Source: an uncultured Erysipelotrichaceae bacterium
Lineage (GTDB): Bacteria > Bacillota_I > Bacilli_A > Erysipelotrichales > Erysipelotrichaceae
DNA: 64,000 nt
NCBI GenBank assembly: GCA_964418835.1
Contig: CAYQNJ010000001.1
Location: 52,630 to 116,629 of the forward strand
Direction: 5' to 3'
The notes under the pieces were generated by a model, which was given only the letters and a program-made list of their open reading frames with translations, had not been told where the DNA came from and ran no database searches. The translations under genes and the position numbers were made by a program. Below, piece by piece: positions 10,260 through 61,782 of the stretch. Position 1 is the first letter of the stretch; the number at the start of each line of letters is the position of its first letter.

Positions 10260-11264
10260 ATGGTTGAAGATAGACTGTTATCATCTTTACCTGAAAGTGG
10301 AGATGATGAAGAAAATATAAGACCACAAAGTCTTAGTGAATATGTAGGACAAGATACATTAAAGTCTAATTTAAATGTATTTATTCAAGCTGCATTACAA
10401 AGAAATGAATCACTTGATCATGTATTATTGTATGGTCCTCCAGGGTTGGGTAAAACCACATTATCATTTATACTTGCTAATGAAATGGGTAGTCATGTAA
10501 GGGTTACTAGTGGCCCTAGTATTGAAAAAAGTGGTGATTTAGCTGCAATACTTTCTACTTTAGAAGCTGGGGATATCTTATTTATTGATGAAATTCATAG
10601 ACTACCTAAAGTTGTAGAAGAGGTATTATATCCAGCAATGGAAGATTTTTGTATAGATGTAGTTATTGGGAAAGATACAGGTGTAAGAAGCATAAGATTA
10701 GATTTACCTCCTTTTACACTAGTTGGTGCAACTACAAGAGCTGGTGATTTAAGTGCTCCATTAAGAGATAGATTTGGGATTGTGTCAAAACTTGATTACT
10801 ATACTATTGATCAATTAAAAGCAATTGTAAAAAGAACAGCACGTGTATTAAATGTAGAAATAAAAGAAAATGCACTTGATCAAATAGCTACACGATCAAG
10901 AGGGACTCCTAGAATAGCAAATAGACTACTTAGGAGAGTTAGAGACTTTGCTCAAGTATATAATGATGGTGTGATAACTAAGGAAGTAGCGAAGGATGCA
11001 CTTGATAGACTTCAAGTTGATTCTTTAGGTTTAGATGAAGTAGACATTAGATATTTAAGAGGTATTATTGAAAGATTTAAAGGTGGTCCTGTTGGTTTAG
11101 AAACATTAGCAAGTTCTATAAGTGAAGAAACAATGACATTAGAGGATGTATATGAACCTTACTTATTACAAATAGGTTTTATTAATAGAACTCCAAGAGG
11201 TAGAATAGCAACAGTAAAAGCTTACCAACATTTAGGTATTAATCATAATGATTCATTATTTTAG
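10260..11264 (+). CDS. ruvB: Holliday junction DNA helicase RuvB
   Basis: Walker [13 protein letters not shown]+ domain, winged-helix C-terminus. Confidence 0.95.
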
Positions 11265-11290
11265 CCGCAATTGCGGTTTTTTTTATTTTT
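11264..11290 (+). terminator. Rho-independent terminator after ruvB
   Basis: ccgcaattgcgg palindrome plus T9. Confidence 0.8.
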
Positions 11291-11321: not shown

Positions 11322-13010
11322 ATGATTAAAACCAGAAGAAATAATATAATATCTTATATTTTCTTTATACTTATGATATTATTACAAATTATATTTTTGT
11401 TTAAACAAAATATATTTGTAAATTTTCCTTTTGTAATTAATAATTTACATTTATATCTTACTATTCCTATTACACTTTGGGGTTATTCTTTATTTTATAG
11501 AATTACAGATAAAAAAATAAAGTATCTTTCTTTAATTTACACAATACTAATAATTATTTGGTTATTTATAAAGTTTGGAAGAGATAGAAGAGTTGATGAT
11601 AGTATTTCTTTATTTTTATGGTACTTATATTATATCCCATTATTAATAAACATTTATTTTTTATATGAAATACTTAGATATTCAAATAATTCAAGATTAA
11701 AAACTTCTTTTAATTATTATGTATTAGCATTAACTATTATTCTAATTATGATTGTAATTACGAATAGTCATCATTTTTTAGTATTTAAATTTAAAGATAT
11801 AAATATTCAAAATGATTATACATATGGTTTTATGTATAAAGTAATTGTCATATGGATAATTTTTGTAGGAAGCTTAATACTTTATCACGCTTTTAGAATA
11901 TATAAAAACAGAAATAAAATACCATTGTTATTTATATTTTTAATATTTTTATTATATTTTGTATATAATCGAGGTTATGTTTACAGACTACCATTTTTAT
12001 TTACTGGTGATTTTCCAATCACAACAATAATTTTTATGGTTTATTTGTTGGAGATATGTATAAGGATTAATTTAATACCAGGTAAATATTATTATACTGG
12101 TGTATTTAAAATGGGTAATTTAGATTTATCTATTATTGATGATAAAAATAATATTATTTTTAATACTCCAAATTCTACTGTTTTAAATGATGAGTTTTTT
12201 AATAGTTTAAATAAAAACGTAAAAACCCAAGAATTTTCATTAAGTAATAAAAGTATTATATTTAAGGTAAATAAAATTGATGGTGGATATTCTGTATATA
12301 CAAAAAATGTTCAGACAATAAATGAATTGATGTCTCAAATTAATGATAAATCACTTATTATTAATAGACAAAATAACATTCTTTCTATTGAAGAGGAACT
12401 TTCAAAAAAATACTTGGGTGAAAAAGTAAGTGATAAACTAAAAAATATAGTTGATCAAGTTATTTTTAAAAAATTAGATAACATCAATTATTTTACTGAA
12501 ATGATAACTGGTTCATTAAATAGTAAATATCAAGACTATAGACTTTTATCATATATAAAAATATATGTTGGATATTGTAAGAATAAATCTACATTACTAC
12601 TCAAAGAAGTTAATAAGGAATACATTGCGAGTGATGATTTTAGTATTATTTTACATAATACTATTCAAGATTCTTTTTCTGCAGGGATTCAAGGTCAAAT
12701 ATTTGTGAATATTGAAGAAGAAATAAACATGAAACATGTACAATTATTTTTTGATATTACACAGTTTATATTAGAAAAGTGTATTAGATTTAGTGAAACT
12801 AATGTGTTTATTAGAATTGATAAAGAGAATAATAATTATACTTATTATTCTATAATTGATACTTATGACAAAAAAGGGAATTTTATATTTAAGTTTGATA
12901 ATAGTATAGTAAATTCTATTAATAATTTAGATGGAAATTATAATTTTTTATTAGAAGATAATAATGTTTTAATGAGTGTAAAAGTAAAGGTAAGTAATAA
13001 TCATGAATGA
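11322..13010 (+). CDS. Polytopic membrane protein with a C-terminal degenerate histidine-kinase-like (GHKL) ATPase domain and no H-box
   Basis: ~8 predicted TM helices in the first 250 aa. C-terminal region ...LFFDITQFILEKCIRFSETNVFIRIDKENNNYTYYSIIDTYDKKGN resembles N-box/G1 of HATPase_c, but no HDxxGQ His-box is seen. 8-nt overlap with the downstream kinase gene. Confidence 0.55.
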   Translation: MIKTRRNNIISYIFFILMILLQIIFLFKQNIFVNFPFVINNLHLYLTIPITLWGYSLFYRITDKKIKYLSLIYTILIIIWLFIKFGRDRRVDDSISLFLWYLYYIPLLINIYFLYEILRYSNNSRLKTSFNYYVLALTIILIMIVITNSHHFLVFKFKDINIQNDYTYGFMYKVIVIWIIFVGSLILYHAFRIYKNRNKIPLLFIFLIFLLYFVYNRGYVYRLPFLFTGDFPITTIIFMVYLLEICIRINLIPGKYYYTGVFKMGNLDLSIIDDKNNIIFNTPNSTVLNDEFFNSLNKNVKTQEFSLSNKSIIFKVNKIDGGYSVYTKNVQTINELMSQINDKSLIINRQNNILSIEEELSKKYLGEKVSDKLKNIVDQVIFKKLDNINYFTEMITGSLNSKYQDYRLLSYIKIYVGYCKNKSTLLLKEVNKEYIASDDFSIILHNTIQDSFSAGIQGQIFVNIEEEINMKHVQLFFDITQFILEKCIRFSETNVFIRIDKENNNYTYYSIIDTYDKKGNFIFKFDNSIVNSINNLDGNYNFLLEDNNVLMSVKVKVSNNHE

Positions 13011-14334
13011 TATATATTTATTACATATGGTTATTTCTATGCTTGGAATAAATTTAATTTTGATATTAATACTTATTAATATTCCTTTAATGACTAAAAT
13101 TGATTTTATATTTTTAACTTTAAGAAGTATTGCATTGATAAGTTTTCATATGCTTGTGCTTATGCTCTTTTATGATTTATTTTATCATAATCCATTAACA
13201 TATATACTTTATATATTTGTAGTTCTTATTTTATTTATTTTAATAAATCTAATATATGGTTCTAAAATAATTAAGTTTTATTTAATACTATTTATTATTA
13301 TTTCCTATACAATTAACACCAATTTAATAGATAAATTAATGTTCATAAATATAATAATATTATTATATGAGATTTATGAAATATATGAAATGATTAAAAA
13401 GAGAAATACTTTTATTTCAAGAAACACTATTAAACAAGCTTTTGATACTATGGATGATGGATTATTATTTGTTAATGAGGAATGTATGCCATTACTAATG
13501 AATAATAAAATGATAAATATATTAAATGAGTTTGAATCATTTTATAAATTAGGTAATTCTAGATTAATACATAAAATTATAGAAAATATATCTAATTCTT
13601 TAATAAAGGTTAATGATAAAACATATTCAGTTTTTGTTAGTGAAAGCACTGATAAACATAAAGGCTTTTACTATCAATTTGTTGATGTAAGTGATAGTTA
13701 TAAATTTATTGAACAATTAGAAAATCAAAATCAATTTTTATTGTTAAAACAAAGTGATTTAAAAAACAGTTTAAAGAATATAGAAAAATCAGTAACTGAT
13801 AATGAAGTTTTAAAATTAAGATTATGGATACATGATATTATTGGGCAACGACTATCTATTGTACATACATATATAGAAAACAATTTTTTAAATACTGACA
13901 ATATTAATGAATTAAAAGAAATTTTAAAAAAAATTAAAGGGGATTTAAATTTTGATAGTTACAATATTGATGAAAGATTTAATAGAATAAAAATTACTTA
14001 TGAAGTTGTAAACACAATATTACATCTAAATGGTAGTTTTCCTAATGATAATAAGGTTTCTACAATATTTTTAAATATAATTCGAGAAGCAAGTACAAAT
14101 GCAATAAGACATTCTAGTGCTAAAAATGTATATATTGATATCAAGGAAGACAAAGAAAATTTATATTTAAACATTAAAAATGATGGAAAAGTTAATACAA
14201 AGAATATAGTTGAAGGTGATGGAATTCTAGGAATGAGAAGAGCAATTAAACCTTATGAAGGTGTATTGAACATTACTACTGATCCACTTTTTCAAATTGA
14301 TATTAAATTAAAAAGATCTAATTTAGATCTTTGA
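13003..14334 (+). CDS. Polytopic sensor histidine kinase, HisKA_3 family (DesK/LiaS-like)
   Basis: 4-5 N-terminal TM helices; H-box RLWIHDIIGQRLS; HATPase N-box REASTNAIRHS, G-boxes NDGKV and GDGILGMRRA. Confidence 0.8.
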   Translation: MNDIYLLHMVISMLGINLILILILINIPLMTKIDFIFLTLRSIALISFHMLVLMLFYDLFYHNPLTYILYIFVVLILFILINLIYGSKIIKFYLILFIIISYTINTNLIDKLMFINIIILLYEIYEIYEMIKKRNTFISRNTIKQAFDTMDDGLLFVNEECMPLLMNNKMINILNEFESFYKLGNSRLIHKIIENISNSLIKVNDKTYSVFVSESTDKHKGFYYQFVDVSDSYKFIEQLENQNQFLLLKQSDLKNSLKNIEKSVTDNEVLKLRLWIHDIIGQRLSIVHTYIENNFLNTDNINELKEILKKIKGDLNFDSYNIDERFNRIKITYEVVNTILHLNGSFPNDNKVSTIFLNIIREASTNAIRHSSAKNVYIDIKEDKENLYLNIKNDGKVNTKNIVEGDGILGMRRAIKPYEGVLNITTDPLFQIDIKLKRSNLDL

Positions 14335-14937
14335 GTTTATATATCCATTTGCTAGTGCAAATATTGCAAGTTTTGATATTGAATCATAACCAGTTTTTTG
14401 AAGAATTGTACTTATATAAGCTTTTATTGTTCCTTCACTTAAATATAATTCTTTAGCTATTTCTTTTCGAGATTTTGCTTCACAAATAAGTCTTAGAATA
14501 TCTAGTTCTTTTTGTGTTAGTTGGGCATCATTTGGTAGTTTGGGGATAGTATTGGTTGGATAAATAGAATAACCAGCCATAGTGTTTCTAATACAATTTA
14601 CAAGGCTTGAGAGATCTATATTCTTATATATAAAACTATCTGCTTTTGCAAGTCTTGCTCTTTCAACAAACGTTATTTCCGGCATAGCTGTCATAATTAT
14701 TATTTTAATATGAGGTAGTGCTTCTTTTATTTCTTTTGTTGCATCTAATCCACTAGAATTATTTTCTGTACATATATCCATAAGTACTAAATCTGGTTTT
14801 AGTTTTTGACATGTATGAAGTGCAATATCTGAGTTGCTTATGCCCCCAATTACTTCAAAATCTTCAAAAGTATTAAGATTCATACATAAAGCATCTCTCA
14901 ATATTGTTTGATCTTCTACTATTAATAGTTTAATCAT
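14323..14937 (-). CDS. Response regulator, NarL/LuxR family (REC + HTH_LuxR)
   Basis: REC domain with DLVLMDI phospho-acceptor Asp; C-terminal LuxR HTH LTQKELDILRLICEAKSRKEIAKELYLSEGTIKAY; RBS GGAG on the minus strand. Confidence 0.85.
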   Translation of the reverse strand: MIKLLIVEDQTILRDALCMNLNTFEDFEVIGGISNSDIALHTCQKLKPDLVLMDICTENNSSGLDATKEIKEALPHIKIIIMTAMPEITFVERARLAKADSFIYKNIDLSSLVNCIRNTMAGYSIYPTNTIPKLPNDAQLTQKELDILRLICEAKSRKEIAKELYLSEGTIKAYISTILQKTGYDSISKLAIFALANGYINSKI

Positions 14938-15072: not shown

Positions 15073-16278
15073 ATGGGATTAATTAAAGCAGCTTTAGGAG
15101 CATTATCAGGAACAATGGCAGACTCATGGAAAGAGTACTTCTATTGTGATTCTATCGACAGTGATACACTAATTGTAAAAGGTATGAAAAGAGTTAATGG
15201 TAAAAGATCATCTAACATGCATGGTACAGAGAATGTTATAACAAATGGGTCTAAAATTACAGTAAATGAAGGTCAATGTCTACTAATAGTTGATAATGGA
15301 AAAATTGTAGATATTGCGGCTGAATCAGGTGATTATGTTTATGATGCAGCAATGGAACCTAGTATTTTTGATGGTGGACTAGGTGATGCTATTAAAAACA
15401 CTTTTAATCAAGCTTGGAATAGATTTGAGTTTGGTGGAGATGTTTCGAAAGATAATCGAATTTATTATGTTAATACAAAAGAAATAGTTGGTAACAAATA
15501 TGGTACACCAAATGCAGTTCCTTTTAGAGTTATTGATGCTAATATTGGACTTGATGTAGATATATCTATTAGATGTTTTGGTGAGTATTCATATAAAATT
15601 ACTAACCCGATATTATTCTATAAAAACGTGAGTGGTAATGTTACTCAAGACTATAAAAGAGATGAAATTGATAGTCAATTAAAGACTGAGTTAATGACTG
15701 CACTTCAACCAACTTTCGCAAAAATTTCTGCGATGGGAATTAGATATAGTCAACTACCAGGTCACACTAAAGAAATTTCTAAAGCTTTAAATGAAGAGTT
15801 ATCTAGCCAGTGGGCAGAAACTAGGGGAATAGAAATAGCATCATTTGGTATCTCTAGTGTATCAGCTTCTGAAGAAGATGAAAAAATGATTAAACAACTT
15901 CAAAGTTCTGCAGTTAATAGAGATCCACGAATGGCAGCAGCAAATTTAGTTGGTGCTCAAGCACAAGCAATGAGAGATGCTGCAAATAATCCTTCAGGTG
16001 CATTTACTGGTTTTATGGGAATGAATATGGCTAATATGAGTGGCGGTTTTGATGCACAATCACTTTATAATCAACCAACCAATCAACAACAAGTACAACA
16101 AACAGTACAACAAACACAACAATCTAGTGACACTTGGAAGTGTGAATGTGGTCATGATAACACTGGAAAGTTTTGTGGTGAATGTGGTAAACCTAAACCA
16201 TCTCTAAATTGGTCATGTGAATGTGGTCATGAAAATACAGGAAAGTTCTGTAGTAATTGCGGTAAACCAAAAGTATAG
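15073..16278 (+). CDS. SPFH/Band-7 domain protein (Band_7_1, YdjI-like) with Q-rich linker and duplicated C-terminal zinc ribbon
   Basis: N-terminus MGLIKAALGALSGTMADSWKEYF...DSDTLIVKG typical of the Band_7_1 SPFH family; QPTNQQQVQQTVQQTQQ linker; two CxCG...CxxCG ribbons. Confidence 0.75.
   Translation: MGLIKAALGALSGTMADSWKEYFYCDSIDSDTLIVKGMKRVNGKRSSNMHGTENVITNGSKITVNEGQCLLIVDNGKIVDIAAESGDYVYDAAMEPSIFDGGLGDAIKNTFNQAWNRFEFGGDVSKDNRIYYVNTKEIVGNKYGTPNAVPFRVIDANIGLDVDISIRCFGEYSYKITNPILFYKNVSGNVTQDYKRDEIDSQLKTELMTALQPTFAKISAMGIRYSQLPGHTKEISKALNEELSSQWAETRGIEIASFGISSVSASEEDEKMIKQLQSSAVNRDPRMAAANLVGAQAQAMRDAANNPSGAFTGFMGMNMANMSGGFDAQSLYNQPTNQQQVQQTVQQTQQSSDTWKCECGHDNTGKFCGECGKPKPSLNWSCECGHENTGKFCSNCGKPKV
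16135..16275 (+). repeat. Tandem ~66-nt direct repeat encoding two zinc-ribbon modules
   Basis: WKCECGHDNTGKFCGECGKPKP and WSCECGHENTGKFCSNCGKPKV encoded by two adjacent ~75% identical DNA units. Confidence 0.8.
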
Positions 16279-16292
16279 ATTGGAGAACAATT

Positions 16293-17381
16293 ATGAGTGA
16301 ATTTGAAGAAGTAATTAGCACTACTAGAAATGAAACAGACAAAAGATGTACACAATGTGGAGGTGTGATGAATTTTGATCCTTCAAATGGTAATCTAACT
16401 TGTCCATATTGTGGTCATACTCAAATTGTAGAAAACTTGGAGTCTAGTGCTGTAGAAATTGATTTAAAAGAAGCTGAAGATTTAGGGAATCATGATTGGG
16501 GTCTTGAAACAAAAACAGTAATATGTAAAAACTGTAGTGCACAAAGTATTTATGATGCTTTAGAAATAGCTAATGTTTGTCCATATTGTGGAAGTAATCA
16601 TGTTATGGAAGAAAAGGGAGTAAAAACTTTGGCTCCTGGTGGTGTAGTTATATTTGAGGTTACTGCAAAAGAGGCTGGGGATAAGTTTAGTAAATGGCTA
16701 AGTAAGAAATGGTTTTGTCCAACTCCTGCAAAACAATCAGCAAAACCTGAAAAATTTAAAGGTGTTTATTTGCCTAATTGGACATTTGATACAAATACTA
16801 ACAGTTTTTATATAGGTGAAGCTGGGGTTGTTAAAACTAGAAAGAAAGCCGATGGTAAAACAGAAAGCTATACTCAATATCATCATGTCAATGGTAGATA
16901 CAATTATGTATTCGATGACTTTATTGAAAGTGGTTCTAATAGAATTAATAAAGATACTTTAAAACAAATTGAACCTTTTGATACAGAGAATAATAAAAGT
17001 TATAAACCAGAGTATATAGCAGGTTTTTCAGCTGAAAGGTATTCTATTGGATTAGAAGATGCTTGGGAGTCTGCTGGCAAAAGAATGAAAGATAAGTTAA
17101 AAACAGATATTGAATTAAAGATTAAATCTAATGAAAGAGCTTCTTATGTTAGAGGTTTAACAGTAGAGACTAAATTCAATGATGTAAAATTTAAATATCT
17201 GTTATTACCAATTTGGATTTCATCATTTGTATTTAATGGTAAAACATATGAGTTTATGGTAAATGGACAAACTGGAAAGGTAAGTGGTACATCTCCAATA
17301 GATAAAGTTAAAGTAGCAATTGTTGTAATAATTGTAATTGCTGTAATTGTTGGAATTATCTACTTTGTAAATTATCGATGA
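16293..17381 (+). CDS. Zinc-ribbon membrane protein (two CxxC...CxxC ribbons, central domain, C-terminal TM anchor); YdjG-like
   Basis: CTQCG...CPYCG and CKNCS...CPYCG pairs; C-terminal TM VKVAIVVIIVIAVIVGIIYF; stop overlaps the next start (ATGA). Confidence 0.65.
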   Translation: MSEFEEVISTTRNETDKRCTQCGGVMNFDPSNGNLTCPYCGHTQIVENLESSAVEIDLKEAEDLGNHDWGLETKTVICKNCSAQSIYDALEIANVCPYCGSNHVMEEKGVKTLAPGGVVIFEVTAKEAGDKFSKWLSKKWFCPTPAKQSAKPEKFKGVYLPNWTFDTNTNSFYIGEAGVVKTRKKADGKTESYTQYHHVNGRYNYVFDDFIESGSNRINKDTLKQIEPFDTENNKSYKPEYIAGFSAERYSIGLEDAWESAGKRMKDKLKTDIELKIKSNERASYVRGLTVETKFNDVKFKYLLLPIWISSFVFNGKTYEFMVNGQTGKVSGTSPIDKVKVAIVVIIVIAVIVGIIYFVNYR

Positions 17382-18358
17382 TTAAATTATTACTAATATT
17401 AATATTGATTATATCTGGATGTGGTAATAAAAAAGATCCACCAATTGACATAGAAGAGACTCCTACACCAATTATTGAAAATATAGAAACTGAAGAGATA
17501 GATGAAACTATTATTATTGATTTTTTAGGATATTCTTCTAATTATCAAAATAAATTAGATCAATATTTATTTAAGATGAATTATACAGCTATTGATGAGT
17601 TAGATATGGGTGGTGATGAGGTTTATTTAATAGACCCAGTTAAAAATATTGATATGGAAATTAATTGGATTAATTATGATGAAAATAACGAAGAATCATA
17701 TGCATTTTTTGCACTAATTCAACAAGATGAACCATTTATACTAATATGTAATGAAAGTGATATAAGACCAAATAATAAAATAATAGTTAATAATACTCAA
17801 GAATTTTCTCTACAAATTAGTTTAGAAAATGGAGAGTTAATTCAACCAGATAAAACTGAAACAGTTGACTGGGGATTTAAAGAACGTGAATTAAAAGATT
17901 CATTAGTGATATTTGATGAAATTATTTCTGCTACATTTGATATATTATTTCATAAATATTCTTTACAGATGCCTGAAGCTGTGGAGTTAATTACTCTAGT
18001 ATCTATGTATTTTGATCCAGCGTATGTAAATGGAGAAATAGAAATTGTAGATGGTGTGACATACAAGATACCAATTGATGTAATAGAAGGATGGACAATA
18101 GTTTTATTTGATGATTATACAGGGGAGTTACCAAATGAATTTGATTCAAATATATATGAGGTAAATTATAAAACTATTAATAGAATTAATGATTATGAAC
18201 TTTTAGAAATAAAAGAAATGGGGGAATTTATAGATTTACTCTATAAAAGAATAGATATTGAAACAGGTTATGAAGAGTTATTTGTAGTTAGTTTGATTAA
18301 AAGTAATACATCAAGTTTAAATTATAGAATATTTGATGTGATAATAAGCGTAGGATAA
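17378..18358 (+). CDS. Acidic lipoprotein of unknown function
   Basis: Signal peptide with lipobox LIISGC; Glu/Asp/Ile-rich 326-aa protein; translationally coupled to the upstream gene. Confidence 0.6.
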   Translation: MIKLLLILILIISGCGNKKDPPIDIEETPTPIIENIETEEIDETIIIDFLGYSSNYQNKLDQYLFKMNYTAIDELDMGGDEVYLIDPVKNIDMEINWINYDENNEESYAFFALIQQDEPFILICNESDIRPNNKIIVNNTQEFSLQISLENGELIQPDKTETVDWGFKERELKDSLVIFDEIISATFDILFHKYSLQMPEAVELITLVSMYFDPAYVNGEIEIVDGVTYKIPIDVIEGWTIVLFDDYTGELPNEFDSNIYEVNYKTINRINDYELLEIKEMGEFIDLLYKRIDIETGYEELFVVSLIKSNTSSLNYRIFDVIISVG

Positions 18359-40035: not shown

Positions 40036-40734
40036 ATGGGAACTATTATTAACTGTATTGCGATTATTATTGGGAGTATTGTAGGTTCATTCTTAAAAAA
40101 AGGCATTTCTGATAATTTACAAAATGCTATTTTTTCTATATTAGGTATAGCAATAATAATTGTTGGATTAAATGGTGTTTTATCAAATATGGCTACAATA
40201 GTAGATGGCACAATCGTAACTAGTGGAGAGATATTATTGATTATTAGTTTATCTATTGGAGTTTTAATAGGTGAGGTTATAAAGATAGATGATAAATTAA
40301 ATGAATTAGGAAAGAAATTAGAAAATAAATATAAAATAAGTGGTTTTGCGAAAAGTTTTGTTACAGGAACATTGATATTTTGTGTTGGTGCTATGGCAAT
40401 AGTTGGTTCCTTAAATGATGGCTTACTAAATGATTATAGTTTATTACTTATAAAATCTTTATTAGATGGTATTGTTAGTGTCATCTTAAGTGCAACTATG
40501 GGTATAGGTGTTTTATTTTCTTTTATACCTGTTGGTTTATATCAAGGATCTATTACTTTGCTATCTTCATTCTTAAATCCATTCTTAAGTAATGAATTGA
40601 TTAGGTTAATATGTATGGTAGGTTATACTCTTGTTATCACAATAGGTACTAATTTTACATTTAAAACCAATATAAAAACAGCTAATTTATTGCCATCTTT
40701 AATTATTCCTATAATATATTATTTTATTTTTTGA
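40036..40734 (+). CDS. DUF554 family membrane protein (YqgC-like)
   Basis: MGTIINCIAIIIGSIVGSFL... typical DUF554 6-TM protein. Confidence 0.7.
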   Translation: MGTIINCIAIIIGSIVGSFLKKGISDNLQNAIFSILGIAIIIVGLNGVLSNMATIVDGTIVTSGEILLIISLSIGVLIGEVIKIDDKLNELGKKLENKYKISGFAKSFVTGTLIFCVGAMAIVGSLNDGLLNDYSLLLIKSLLDGIVSVILSATMGIGVLFSFIPVGLYQGSITLLSSFLNPFLSNELIRLICMVGYTLVITIGTNFTFKTNIKTANLLPSLIIPIIYYFIF

Positions 40735-41894
40735 TTGTTATTCCTATATTGAATAGGTGTTAAACTATATTTCTTTTTAAAAGAATTTTGAAAATGACTT
40801 TGACTTGAGAAATGTAGTTTTTTACTTATTTCAACCACACTAATATTTGTTGATTCTAATAACTTTTTAGAATGTTCTAGCTTTGAATTAATTATATATT
40901 GTTGAATTGTTGTTCCTGTGTCTTTAGTAAAACACTTTGATAAGTGATTTCTAGTAACATTTAATTTTAAAGCTATATTATTTACAGTTAATGGTGATTC
41001 TAAACTTTCATTAATATAAGTTATTGCCATTTTAACAAGGTTTGAATAATTTTTTGTATTTTTTAAAGTACTTACTCTATCGAAATATATTTTTAATGTT
41101 TCGTTAAATATACTTTCTGCATTTTTAAATGTTTTTGTTTTATTTAGTTTATTAATCATTAATTTAGTTATTTTACTAGTAGTTTTACTGTCAACACCTG
41201 CTTTAATAGCATATGTTGATATTATGGATAGATAATAAATTATATAGTTTTTAAAACTTTGAATATCTTCATTAATATCATCAAATATTAAATCTTTATT
41301 AGGGTAAAAGTTTGAGAATGTAATAAAACCTAATTGATTACCTTCAACAATGAAGTTTTCAAGTTTTTCCATAAAAACATCATTGTTTGATTTATTAATA
41401 TTCACAGATTTCATTTTTTCTAAATCATATATATCATATTGACTTATTAGGTTATATTCATTAATTGATGAATTATTTATTGTAAAATCTAATAACATCA
41501 TAAGATTTACAAACTGTTCATAATCTACAGGGTTTGCTACTAACAATTCATCAGTTATTAAAGATTGTTCCTTAATATCTAATTTAAGTTTTTTTAGTAT
41601 TAAATCTATTTCTTTTAAATTTAAATACTTTTTAATTACTGGACCAATAATTAAATCAAAACTAGAGTTTTTAGATTTAACTTTAATCTTTCCTAAAAAC
41701 ATTGAATCAAAGTGATAAGTAATATTAGCAGTTTTATTAGTAGTATTAGAATAGTATAAATTATTAATTAAGGATAGAAGTTTATTCTTTTTAGGTATAG
41801 AAAAAAGAAGCTTATCATTTTTAACACATGTTATTGGTATTTTATTATAAGCATAAAAATATTCTAAATATGACATAAATTTACTGTTGGACAT
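40719..41894 (-). CDS. AraC-family transcriptional regulator with an uncharacterised N-terminal domain
   Basis: C-terminal double HTH (VNNIALKLNVTRNHLSKCF... and EISKKLHFSSQSHFQNSFKKKYSLTP). Confidence 0.75.
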   Translation of the reverse strand: MSNSKFMSYLEYFYAYNKIPITCVKNDKLLFSIPKKNKLLSLINNLYYSNTTNKTANITYHFDSMFLGKIKVKSKNSSFDLIIGPVIKKYLNLKEIDLILKKLKLDIKEQSLITDELLVANPVDYEQFVNLMMLLDFTINNSSINEYNLISQYDIYDLEKMKSVNINKSNNDVFMEKLENFIVEGNQLGFITFSNFYPNKDLIFDDINEDIQSFKNYIIYYLSIISTYAIKAGVDSKTTSKITKLMINKLNKTKTFKNAESIFNETLKIYFDRVSTLKNTKNYSNLVKMAITYINESLESPLTVNNIALKLNVTRNHLSKCFTKDTGTTIQQYIINSKLEHSKKLLESTNISVVEISKKLHFSSQSHFQNSFKKKYSLTPIQYRNNNQKIK

Positions 41895-56710: not shown

Positions 56711-57688
56711 ATGATGGAAGATAGATTAAGTGAATGTTTAAGATTGGCATTGCATAATAATGTAAGTGATATTCATTTTAGTGTTATAGATAATAATATA
56801 ACTATAGAAATGAGATTGCCAGATAGAATCAGAAAACTAAAACCTCATAAGAATGATTTAAAGTTATTTAGGTATTTACAATATAAATCAAATATAGATA
56901 TAGGCAATAAATTATTACCTCAAACTGGAAGATGTGAAACTGTTGTTGATTCTAAATTAATATCATTAAGGTTTTCTATAATAAATAGTTATAAGATAAC
57001 TAATGGAGTTTTAAGGATATTAAATGCACATAATAAGTTAAATATCGAAGATTTAACTTATGATTTTGAAATTATTAATTATTTAAAAGATATTGGATTA
57101 GGTAGAAGCGGTTTATATATATTTTCTGGTCCTACTGGAAGTGGTAAAACAACAACTCTTTATACAATATTAAATTCTATAGAAAATAAAAAGATATTTA
57201 CTTTGGAAGACCCTATTGAAATATATAGTAATAAATATGTTCAACTACAAATAAATGAACAACAGAATTTAGGTTATTCTCAAGGTATTAAACAGCTTAT
57301 GAGGCATGATCCAGACATTATTATGATAGGTGAAATAAGAGATGAAATTGCGGCTAATATGGCTATTAGAAGCGCTTTAACGGGTCATTTAGTATTAACT
57401 AGTATTCACTCTGGAAATTGTGTTATGGCTATTAATAGATTATTAGAATTAGGAGTAAATAAATTACAGTTATTTGATGTTTTAAAAGGCATAAGTAATC
57501 AAAGACTTTATTCTACTATATCTAATTCTAAAACTGGAGTTTATGAAGTGATGGATAGAAAGGAAGTGATTTATTATCTTCAAAATGAAACTACATCAAA
57601 ATCTTTCAAGTCCCTTGAAGAAAGAATCAGAGAAGCAATCAAAAATAGAATTATTAAAGAAGAAACTGCCAAACAAGATTTATATTAA
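56711..57688 (+). CDS. comGA: Competence pilus assembly ATPase ComGA
   Basis: GspE/PilB-type ATPase, Walker A GPTGSGKTTT, Walker B IIMIGEIRD. Confidence 0.85.
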   Translation: MMEDRLSECLRLALHNNVSDIHFSVIDNNITIEMRLPDRIRKLKPHKNDLKLFRYLQYKSNIDIGNKLLPQTGRCETVVDSKLISLRFSIINSYKITNGVLRILNAHNKLNIEDLTYDFEIINYLKDIGLGRSGLYIFSGPTGSGKTTTLYTILNSIENKKIFTLEDPIEIYSNKYVQLQINEQQNLGYSQGIKQLMRHDPDIIMIGEIRDEIAANMAIRSALTGHLVLTSIHSGNCVMAINRLLELGVNKLQLFDVLKGISNQRLYSTISNSKTGVYEVMDRKEVIYYLQNETTSKSFKSLEERIREAIKNRIIKEETAKQDLY

Positions 57689-57689
57689 T

Positions 57690-58655
57690 ATGCTAGATTG
57701 TGAAGCTATTGTTCAATTAATGAATAATGGTTTTACTTTTATAGATTCATGTAATTTAATTGAAAATAAACAAAATAATAAAGTATTTAATTTTATTAAG
57801 ACTAGATTAAATAAAGGTGAAGATATTACAGACTTATTTATAGAATACTGTCCTAATGAAATTAGAACATATTTTACTAGTTTTATAAAATTTCTACCAT
57901 TTAAAAATTCATTAATGTTATCGATATCTATTTATGAGGAATCTAAAAATCAAAGAAATGTATATTTAAAAAAATTACTTTATCCTATATTAACATTAAT
58001 TACTACAATAATTGGGATATATATTTTTATATTAGTTTGTTTTCCAGTATTAATATCATTGATGAAAGAATTTGATAATAATCTAGATTTCATGTTGAAA
58101 CTACAAAATATTAGCTATTTGTTTATTAATGTATTATTTATTACTATTTTAGTTTTACTATTAATAGTTTTATATTTTATAAAAAAAGATAATCAAATAA
58201 AAGGTTTTAAATTAATTTCCAATTTAAAATTATCAAGGTTTATTAAGGTAATGATAAGTAATGATTTTGCAAGATTTTATCAACAATGTATTTTAATCGG
58301 ATGTTCTACTAAAGAAAGTATAAATATACTAAAAAGTATTAATGAAAAACCCATAATAGTATTTTTATCAAATGAAATAGATAAATCACTTTCTAATGGA
58401 GAAACAATGGAGAAAGCTTTTAAAAATAAATATTTTGAAAAAGGATTATTTAGATTTTTAAACATAGCAATGCATGCGTCTAATATGAATGAAATGTTAA
58501 AGGGTTATATTAAATTAAATGAATTAAAAGTAAATAAATTTTTTAATGTATTTTCATATTCAATTCAATTGTTTACTTATTCATCAATAGCATTAGTTTT
58601 AATATTTGTATATCAAATATTAATGATGCCCTTAACAATAATTTCTAATTTATAG
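57690..58655 (+). CDS. comGB: Competence pilus platform protein ComGB (GspF family)
   Basis: ATG directly after the comGA stop (TAATATG); three-TM GspF-like protein. Confidence 0.8.
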   Translation: MLDCEAIVQLMNNGFTFIDSCNLIENKQNNKVFNFIKTRLNKGEDITDLFIEYCPNEIRTYFTSFIKFLPFKNSLMLSISIYEESKNQRNVYLKKLLYPILTLITTIIGIYIFILVCFPVLISLMKEFDNNLDFMLKLQNISYLFINVLFITILVLLLIVLYFIKKDNQIKGFKLISNLKLSRFIKVMISNDFARFYQQCILIGCSTKESINILKSINEKPIIVFLSNEIDKSLSNGETMEKAFKNKYFEKGLFRFLNIAMHASNMNEMLKGYIKLNELKVNKFFNVFSYSIQLFTYSSIALVLIFVYQILMMPLTIISNL

Positions 58656-60864: not shown

Positions 60865-61782
60865 ATGGCTGAAAATGATATAAAAGACACTACAAAAACA
60901 AAAGCAATAAGAAAACCAAGAACAAAAAAGACAAGTATAGCTAACGATAATTCTACTAAAACAAAAACTACAAAACCAAAGGTTGCTACAAAATCTAAAA
61001 GTACTGTAGAAAAGAAACCAACAAAACCAAAAGTTGTAAAAAAAGAATTAAAAGTTGAAGATAAGGTATTTAAATTTGAAACTTATTCAAAGCAAAATAT
61101 AAATTCAACAGAAACAAAAAAAGAAGAAGTTATAAAAGATCCAAACATTAACAAATCATTAAATATTGTAAAAAGTGAAAAAGTAATAATAAAAGATAAA
61201 AAAACAGTTAAACTTTCATCTATCTATGAACAAATGTATAATGCATTTATTAATAAAAGTTATAATAAGGGATTGTTTTTTATAATTTTAAAAAACATTT
61301 TGTTATCAATATTAATTTCTAATTTCTTTTATACTAAATTAAATATTAATTCTTTTAGTTTTTATAGAATGACTTTTACTGATGCTTCAATATTTTCTTT
61401 AAAATTATTTATTACTTTAATTAGTACAGAAATTATCTATCTTTTAATTGTATATTTATTAAATAAACACTATGGTAGTAATTTAAACTATAAAAGAATA
61501 GTATCAACATTTGGAAGTGGTTTAATGTATGTTAGTCTGTTTGTATTATTAAGTATTATATTTATAAATGAAGTAAGCTTATTAGGTTTATTTTTATTAC
61601 TTGTTTCACTTTGTTTATATTTAATTGTTTTAATTACAACAGTTAATATTGTAAGTATAGATAATAATCATAACAAATTAAATATTACACTTATTTCATT
61701 AATAGGGATGGTATTAGTTTTAATGATATTTTTTCCTTTAGTAAGTTCACAGTTTTCAAGAATTATAGAAGTTATGATATAA
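60865..61782 (+). CDS. Membrane protein with Lys/Thr/Pro-rich (histone-H1-like) cytoplasmic N-terminus and ~5 C-terminal TM helices
   Basis: KTKAIRKPRTKKTS...TKPKVATKSKSTVEKKPTKPKVVKK repeats; hydrophobic C-terminal half. Confidence 0.55.
   Translation: MAENDIKDTTKTKAIRKPRTKKTSIANDNSTKTKTTKPKVATKSKSTVEKKPTKPKVVKKELKVEDKVFKFETYSKQNINSTETKKEEVIKDPNINKSLNIVKSEKVIIKDKKTVKLSSIYEQMYNAFINKSYNKGLFFIILKNILLSILISNFFYTKLNINSFSFYRMTFTDASIFSLKLFITLISTEIIYLLIVYLLNKHYGSNLNYKRIVSTFGSGLMYVSLFVLLSIIFINEVSLLGLFLLLVSLCLYLIVLITTVNIVSIDNNHNKLNITLISLIGMVLVLMIFFPLVSSQFSRIIEVMI

Follow-up and report, generated by a model that had tools for sequence, protein, structure and literature searches.

What can a membrane protein built like a sensor histidine kinase contribute to signaling when the residues for phosphorylation and ATP binding are missing from it, and what does the overlap of its gene with that of an intact kinase mean? 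The question is raised by two consecutive genes, here called P1 and P2, on a stretch of 64,000 nucleotides from an uncultured Erysipelotrichaceae bacterium (assembly GCA_964418835.1, contig CAYQNJ010000001.1, positions 52,630 to 116,629 of the forward strand), referred to below as the window. P1 (11322..13010, +) would encode a polytopic pseudo-histidine kinase of 562 amino acids and P2 (13003..14334, +) a sensor histidine kinase of the DesK/HisKA_3 type of 443 amino acids. An earlier note on this DNA had described both genes and their 8-nucleotide overlap, and the coordinates are confirmed here. Pseudo-histidine kinases are an established concept (PMC12632262), of which DivL is an example (PMC4211667). 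P1 is most likely a membrane sensor or regulatory partner of P2, and the explanation that we favor and consider on balance probable is that P1 is a pseudo-histidine kinase made together with P2, which it binds and whose kinase/phosphatase balance it sets.

Kinase architecture and catalytic residues of P1 and P2

P2 is predicted to be a genuine kinase of the DesK/HisKA_3 type, as the earlier note had held, and consists of transmembrane (TM) segments, a PAS-like domain (residues ~140-235), a HisKA_3-type domain for dimerization and for histidine phosphotransfer (DHp) and a catalytic and ATP-binding (CA) domain. Hydropathy gives four to five hydrophobic N-terminal segments between residues 9 and 124. 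The phospho-acceptor His277 (nucleotides 13831-13833) lies within EVLKLRLWIHDIIGQRLS (WIHDIIGQRLS context) and is followed by the N box REASTNAIRH (residues 361-370, nucleotides 14083-14112), the G1 box NDG (393-395, within 14179-14193) and the G2 box GDGILGM (405-411, 14215-14235). With this phospho-acceptor, the three boxes and a neighboring regulator of the NarL/LuxR type, P2 has the features that define the HisKA_3/DesK class. A profile of five P2 family members matched the entire DHp and CA region of DesK in the PDB with the histidine in register (E 3.8e-17), and the single P2 sequence also found DesK (E 1e-7). Invariant in the P2 family alignment are His277, Glu362, Thr365-Asn366, Asn393-Gly395 and Gly407. 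In Pfam, HATPase_c matches P2 with an E-value of 1.3e-4 and 22.8 bits, below the gathering cut-off of 26.4, and the HisKA_3 model gives no match to P2 itself; HATPase_c is matched in all five P2 family members scanned, and PAS_8 follows the membrane region in three of them.

P1 is predicted to keep the full architecture of such a kinase, with a HisKA_7TM-type membrane domain followed by PAS-like, DHp-like and CA-like domains; the assignment draws on the open reading frame (ORF), homologs, AlphaFold models and fold searches. AlphaFold modeled full-length P1 with a mean predicted local distance difference test (pLDDT) score of 80.6 and residues 255-562 with 84.8. The membrane domain (residues 8-248; 11343..12065, +), delimited by hydropathy, AF2 secondary structure and conservation, contains about eight helices, modeled as an N-terminal helix and a 7TM core, so that the multi-TM N-termini that had been read from the sequence of both proteins are borne out. 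Asn148, His151 and Asp230 are nearly invariant polar residues of this domain in the P1 family and Glu244 is invariant; the window protein retains all four across membrane domain and linker. A small PAS-like beta-sheet domain follows (residues 268-329; 12123..12308, +), with invariant Ile319 and Gly322, and then a DHp-like helical hairpin (residues 331-431; 12312..12614, +), in which a 67-residue helix (331-397) is followed by a 30-residue return helix (402-431). The C-terminal CA-like domain (residues 437-556; 12630..12989, +) is alpha/beta, and its helix/strand order in the model matches, one-to-one, the order read from the sequence of the P2 ATP-binding domain. A DHp hairpin with a Bergerat-type CA fold is thus predicted, and the resemblance of the P1 C-terminus to the GHKL fold that the earlier note had suspected gains support from structure prediction and fold searches.

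Sequence profiles are silent on this fold. Pfam and NCBIfam scans of window P1 gave no match, phmmer and P1 family profile searches of PDB sequences returned only coiled-coil noise, and Pfam scans of 30 P1 family members found only the 7TM domain, with no match to HATPase_c or HisKA. The alignment of the P1 and P2 families by hhalign reached a probability of 9.5%, and of 0.7% with larger alignments (74 and 75 sequences); despite this value, the larger run placed the secondary-structure elements in consistent order, and its register agrees with the shared order of CA elements in P1 and P2. PF16927 (HisKA_7TM) is matched by 25 of the 30 family members (best E 2.9e-14) and not by window P1 at E <= 1. 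The representative P0154 scores 80.6 bits, and P0002, which is 60% identical to window P1, falls short of the cut-off of 28.6 bits with 25.3. Since its homologs match while it does not, window P1 would belong to HisKA_7TM by transitivity only, as a divergent branch.

The residues needed for catalysis are missing from P1. Its histidines are at positions 43, 150, 151, 189, 445, 472 and 561, and none lies within the hairpin (331-431). The pattern ERxRIARELHDxxxQ of the HisKA_3 domain is known from DesK, NarX and LiaS. The family motif of the first hairpin helix, EKNRLYDxLQxQTAxQI, lines up with this pattern and with EVLKLRLWIHDIIGQ of P2, and by our own motif comparison the column equivalent to the HisKA_3 histidine is occupied by Asp378 in window P1 and by Gln in 72 of the 74 species representatives. 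Alignment thus revealed no His box, in keeping with what had first been noticed from the sequence. The N-box Asn, G1 (DxGxG) and G2 are absent across the P1 family, there are no conserved Asn/Gly motifs in columns 476-539, and in the hhalign register with the P2 family the TNxxRH stretch is missing. The strings EKCIRFSE and IDTYDKKGN, which the earlier note had taken for remnants of N box and G1, proved to be specific to the lineage. In the favored explanation P1 is a catalytically dead paralog of a sensor histidine kinase, lacking the phospho-acceptor as well as the N, G1 and G2 boxes.

The loss of the histidine also bears on the idea that P1 and P2 form a heterodimeric kinase, in which the CA domain of P2 phosphorylates a residue of P1 and P1 passes the phosphoryl group to the regulator, for which the FasBC model offers a precedent (PMC12675982). 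A metagenomic subclade of the P1 family does carry His in the HisKA_3-His column; one alignment of 45 sequences has it in 24, with the motif NRVNDLLHRETAGQ. In the window, a His relay of this kind through P1 is excluded because the hairpin contains no His; P1 has Asp378 at the equivalent position, Gln prevails among the species representatives, and P2 has its own His277 and needs no outside acceptor. We regard a heterodimeric kinase of this kind as highly improbable.

Gene order and distribution of the P1 family

Searches for homologs were hampered by composition: the first word-index searches yielded 5 and 4 matches because the AT-rich, low-complexity query overwhelmed them, and a word-index query built from higher-GC members only returned 81. 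An exhaustive search with a hidden Markov model (HMM) of the cytoplasmic half of P1 found 1,981 cluster representatives (clustered at 50% identity) at E <= 1e-3, of which 1,558 at E <= 1e-10. Most members are ~550 amino acids long, with the cytoplasmic domain at about residues 265-550. The cytoplasmic half of P1 thus defines a large family for which Pfam and NCBIfam have no matching model, and window P1 is a divergent member of it. NCBI names its homologs only 'histidine kinase N-terminal 7TM domain-containing protein' or 'hypothetical'.

Both genes are real: homologs with 44-99% identity are found in other assemblies, where the ruvB-P1-P2 synteny is preserved. The order is kept in an Erysipelotrichaceae metagenome-assembled genome (MAG; locus L001, P1 46% identical) and in a metagenome contig (L002, 60%), of which only L001 reaches past P2. 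A scan of species-representative genomes gave 80 loci from Oscillospiraceae, Ruminococcaceae, Lachnospiraceae and other families, cultured strains included. A P2-type kinase gene follows P1 immediately in 72 of the 72 loci that extend 1 kb or more downstream, and each of the 65 loci that extend 2.1 kb or more has a same-strand NarL-type regulator gene next. The two kinase-like genes usually overlap by 4 nucleotides at these loci, compared with 8 in the window (ATGAATGA, 13003..13010, +), where the start of P2 lies inside the stop region of P1 and the overlap reads ...AAT CAT GAA TGA in the P1 frame and ATG AAT GAT in the P2 frame. This arrangement suggests that P1 and P2 are probably translationally coupled. 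The partner kinases retain the motifs LHDxxG, ExxTNxxRH and N(D/N)G, and a pattern search recovered the N box in 68 of 78 and G1 in 67 of 78. The pairing of P1 and P2 is repeated in hundreds of Clostridia from the gut. Members are found in the cultured gut species Eisenbergiella porci, Clostridium porci and Faecalicatena contorta, and MAGs attributed to Clostridium symbiosum and Anaerostipes hadrus contain them as well.

That P1 is an independent membrane protein, such as a transporter, an enzyme or a sensor of another pathway, or a decaying duplicate, so that its place next to P2 means nothing, is hardly credible in view of this conservation. Window P1 has no Pfam or NCBIfam match, is very AT-rich in composition and has no function shown, all of which would suit such a protein. 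Against this stand the gene order in 72 of 72 loci, over several families of Clostridia and also in Erysipelotrichaceae, the start/stop overlap, the invariant or near-invariant residues across about 2,000 clusters, the intact reading frame and the confident predicted fold.

A further feature of the family concerns the membrane. Of 78 partner kinases, 13 are 320-350 amino acids long and have no TM segment, which leaves the P1-type protein as the only membrane component at those loci. Contact between P1-type proteins and their kinases would in general not be purely through the membrane, since some partner kinases are soluble. Together with the adjacency, the start/stop overlap and a fusion protein described below, these TM-less partners would count in favor of a P1-P2 partnership. 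Under the favored explanation, P1 and P2 would be produced together, probably via translational coupling; P1 would bind P2 and shift its kinase/phosphatase balance toward the neighboring NarL-type regulator, and the membrane-embedded signal input would come mostly or entirely from P1. The interface is likelier to involve the PAS-like or hairpin regions, and contacts in the membrane are also possible in the window, where both proteins are polytopic. The contact itself, the sign of the regulation (activating as for RocA or inhibiting as for LiaF), the signal and the regulon are what we infer.

Several observations weigh against this explanation. Window P2 has four to five TM segments of its own and could sense signals alone. 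The response regulator gene is inverted in the window, so the three genes are not a single operon. Window P1 has lost near-invariant residues of its family (E369V, N371D, R372K, Y374K, R421N, N424T and E481Q), and the role of these may be altered or absent in its lineage. Lastly, the kinase fold of P1 comes from predicted structure alone, and sequence profiles give no link between P1 and kinases. Retained in window P1 are Tyr418 and Lys420 of the family motif GAYIKRRGNL as well as Leu373, Asp478 and Glu485.

P0141 from the representative library is 1,050 amino acids long and consists of a P1-like part (7TM and a cytoplasmic domain, 264-516) and a soluble P2-like kinase, connected by a long linker rich in Gly, Ser and Ala. 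It could be a true fusion or an artefact of assembly or read-through, and is a single case. Tandem 7TM modules occur in some members (P0154 and P0172, about 770 amino acids), and in L006 and L007 (3922-6239) a 360-amino-acid 7TM ORF overlaps the start of a P1-like ORF of 412 amino acids. A complete locus of P1, P2 and regulator outside the Firmicutes, L018 (JAZQQW010000084.1), is in a MAG labeled Treponema sp. and could reflect transfer or a binning error.

In 44 of the 57 Clostridia loci with room for it, the NarL-type regulator gene is followed by a gene for a stand-alone protein of 127-138 amino acids (for example L037:7036-7419, L017:6588-7004, L028:6941-7342 and L042:6978-7361). BLASTP aligns the protein with the cognate receiver domain (E 4e-4), with the phospho-Asp replaced by Glu (LIMEV vs LMDV) and the conserved Lys by Gly, and it is a pseudo-receiver that Pfam does not recognize. 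A pseudo-receiver gene was looked for in the window and is absent there. A link between the hairpin motifs and the occurrence of the pseudo-receiver gene was tested for and rejected, as nearly all Clostridia loci have the motifs, with or without that gene.

The main rival to the favored explanation is that P1 acts at the level of the response regulator and not of the kinase. The receiver domain would dock onto its His-less hairpin in the manner of ChpT and Spo0B, and P1 would serve as a signal-controlled scaffold, a sequestering site or a dedicated phosphatase; in most Clostridia the docking partner could instead be the stand-alone pseudo-receiver whose gene follows that of the regulator. We judge receiver docking unlikely. 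It is weakened in the window because the pseudo-receiver gene is absent and most hairpin motifs of P1 are lost. As we read the columns, the Gln/Thr pattern that follows the His-equivalent position is shifted by one residue against the DxxxQ of HisKA_3, and the tight start/stop overlap suggests joint production of P1 and P2, which fits a P1-P2 complex.

A broader reading, which we put forward tentatively and think more doubtful than not, is that a widespread split-sensor 'shadow' layer exists in Firmicutes. The layer would comprise the 7TM pseudo-kinase and, in most Clostridia, the stand-alone pseudo-receiver, whose genes always flank those of a DesK-type kinase and its NarL regulator. This dead pair would work without phosphorylation; the pseudo-kinase would be the real membrane receptor and would dock the pseudo-receiver, the live kinase or both to gate phosphotransfer. 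If true, detection and catalysis would reside on separate, co-evolving paralogs.

Surroundings and base composition of the window locus

Upstream of P1 the genes are in the order rpmA-obg-ruvA-ruvB. Directly after the ruvB stop, a terminator-like hairpin with a T run (11263..11288, +; hairpin 11263..11278) has a 6-bp stem with four GC pairs, and because it sits between ruvB and P1, the P1-P2 pair appears to be its own transcription unit. Downstream, a NarL/LuxR-type response regulator of 204 amino acids (14323..14937, -) is encoded convergently with P2 and shares 12 nucleotides with the 3' end of P2. It matches Response_reg (E 9e-18) and GerE (E 5e-13) and has Asp54 and the acidic pair. Neither this regulator nor the hairpin was part of the earlier note. 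The regulator gene is inverted in the window and in L001 (9001-9326, -), and is co-directional in all 65 Clostridia loci that show it.

Three adjoining genes at 15073-18358 (+) diverge from the regulator gene. The first encodes an SPFH/Band_7_1 protein with C-terminal zinc ribbons, the second a protein of 362 amino acids in which several zinc ribbons are combined with a C-terminal TM helix, and the third a putative lipoprotein. The three presumably resemble the envelope-stress genes ydjGHI of Bacillus subtilis, and they could be a local regulon of the response regulator. A regulon shared among the loci was sought in their flanks and not found; the flanks vary, and the neighbors in the window differ from those elsewhere. 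A gene for an SBP_bac_8 extracellular solute-binding protein (~450 amino acids) is found in only 13 loci (L017, L025, L026, L028, L030, L031, L033, L034, L037, L045, L059, L071 and L076), and in the three inspected (L017, L028 and L037) it comes after the regulator and pseudo-receiver genes, a hint that an ABC uptake system may be under control in these species.

P1 and P2 have a GC content of 0.194 and 0.198 against 0.26-0.34 in the neighboring genes, as the earlier note had observed in general terms, in a source genome that is itself very AT-rich (26.8% GC). At third codon positions the GC content (GC3) is 0.114 for P1 and 0.110 for P2, compared with 0.07-0.18 for the neighbors, and the deficit sits in codon positions 1 and 2. 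Horizontal transfer as the source of the low GC was rejected, since GC3 is like that of the neighbors and the ruvB synteny is kept at 46-60% identity. Unchanged GC3 and conserved synteny point to a protein composition rich in Ile, Asn, Lys, Phe and Tyr under strong AT mutation pressure rather than to recent transfer. Three other ORFs of the window are equally AT-rich with ordinary GC3 (GC 0.19-0.20; 40719-41894, -; 57585-58655, +; 60865-61782, +), so that P1 and P2 do not stand alone as compositional outliers.

P1 among pseudo-kinases and accessory proteins

LiaF and VraT are encoded directly upstream of the kinase gene and, to our knowledge, have no DHp or CA-like domains. They are accessory membrane proteins that act with a HisKA_3-type kinase and a NarL-type regulator in three-component systems (PMC3543457; bioRxiv 10.1101/2025.01.23.634444). 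The earlier note had likened the place of the P1 gene to theirs, which is an apt analogy of position, whereas the cytoplasmic part of P1 is predicted to have a full kinase-like fold. The DUF2154 model gave no Pfam match on P1 or on 30 members of its family.

The Fas proteins are of the AgrC/ComD type with a LytTR-type regulator and are not known to be of the HisKA_3/NarL combination. In Streptococcus pyogenes, FasB and FasC are tandem sensor-kinase-like membrane proteins that heterodimerise, one of them being a proposed pseudokinase, and are followed by the regulator FasA (PMC12675982). P1 and P2 are similar in that consecutive genes encode membrane sensor-kinase-like proteins together with one response regulator. 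In the Fas model, however, the pseudokinase FasC provides the phospho-His and FasB the kinase domain, whereas here P2 has both and P1 neither.

RocA of S. pyogenes is a polytopic protein with six predicted TM segments, a DHp domain and a degenerate CA domain, which has no kinase function, binds CovS in the membrane and modulates it (PMC7028121). P1 is like RocA in being a polytopic membrane protein with DHp and degenerate CA-like domains, which in P1 are predicted. Yet rocA is a separate gene that is not described in the covRS locus, whereas P1 is always directly upstream of a HisKA_3-type kinase gene, and CovRS is not placed in the HisKA_3/NarL class by the same study. RocA keeps a His at the canonical site, which is dispensable, whereas P1 has none and carries HisKA_7TM-type and PAS-like domains. 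In the 13 of 78 loci with a TM-less partner kinase, membrane contact of the kind described for RocA is not possible. Pseudo-kinase partners with DHp and CA-like domains are thus already known from RocA (PMC7028121) and FasB/FasC (PMC12675982), and RocA/CovS and FasB/FasC are the nearest analogs of the P1-P2 pair.

ChpT and Spo0B, phosphotransferases with DHp and degenerate CA domains, are soluble and relay phosphate through a His, whereas P1 is polytopic and has Asp or Gln instead. In DivL a Tyr replaces the His and the protein senses a phosphorylated regulator (PMC4211667, PMC9430884); P1 has Asp or Gln and is tied to a simple pair of histidine kinase and response regulator. A search of the open-access literature on HisKA_7TM and 7TM pseudokinases in Clostridia found no description of the P1 family, which is not proof of absence.

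The P1 family, represented in the window by a divergent member, is a widespread and uncharacterized group of pseudo-kinase partners. Studies of pseudo-histidine kinases have covered few proteins (DivL, RocA, FasC and a handful more), and this family adds ~2,000 clusters of one fixed design. Its cultured members make it testable how a catalytically dead paralog relays a membrane signal to a working kinase, and in annotation, P1-type proteins could be miscounted as kinases under their current names. Set against RocA, FasB/FasC and LiaF/VraT, the P1 family combines a 7TM and PAS-like input with loss of the His as well as of the ATP site, and it is further distinguished by its strict coupling to a DesK-type kinase, by some partners without TM segments and by the frequent pseudo-receiver gene after the regulator.

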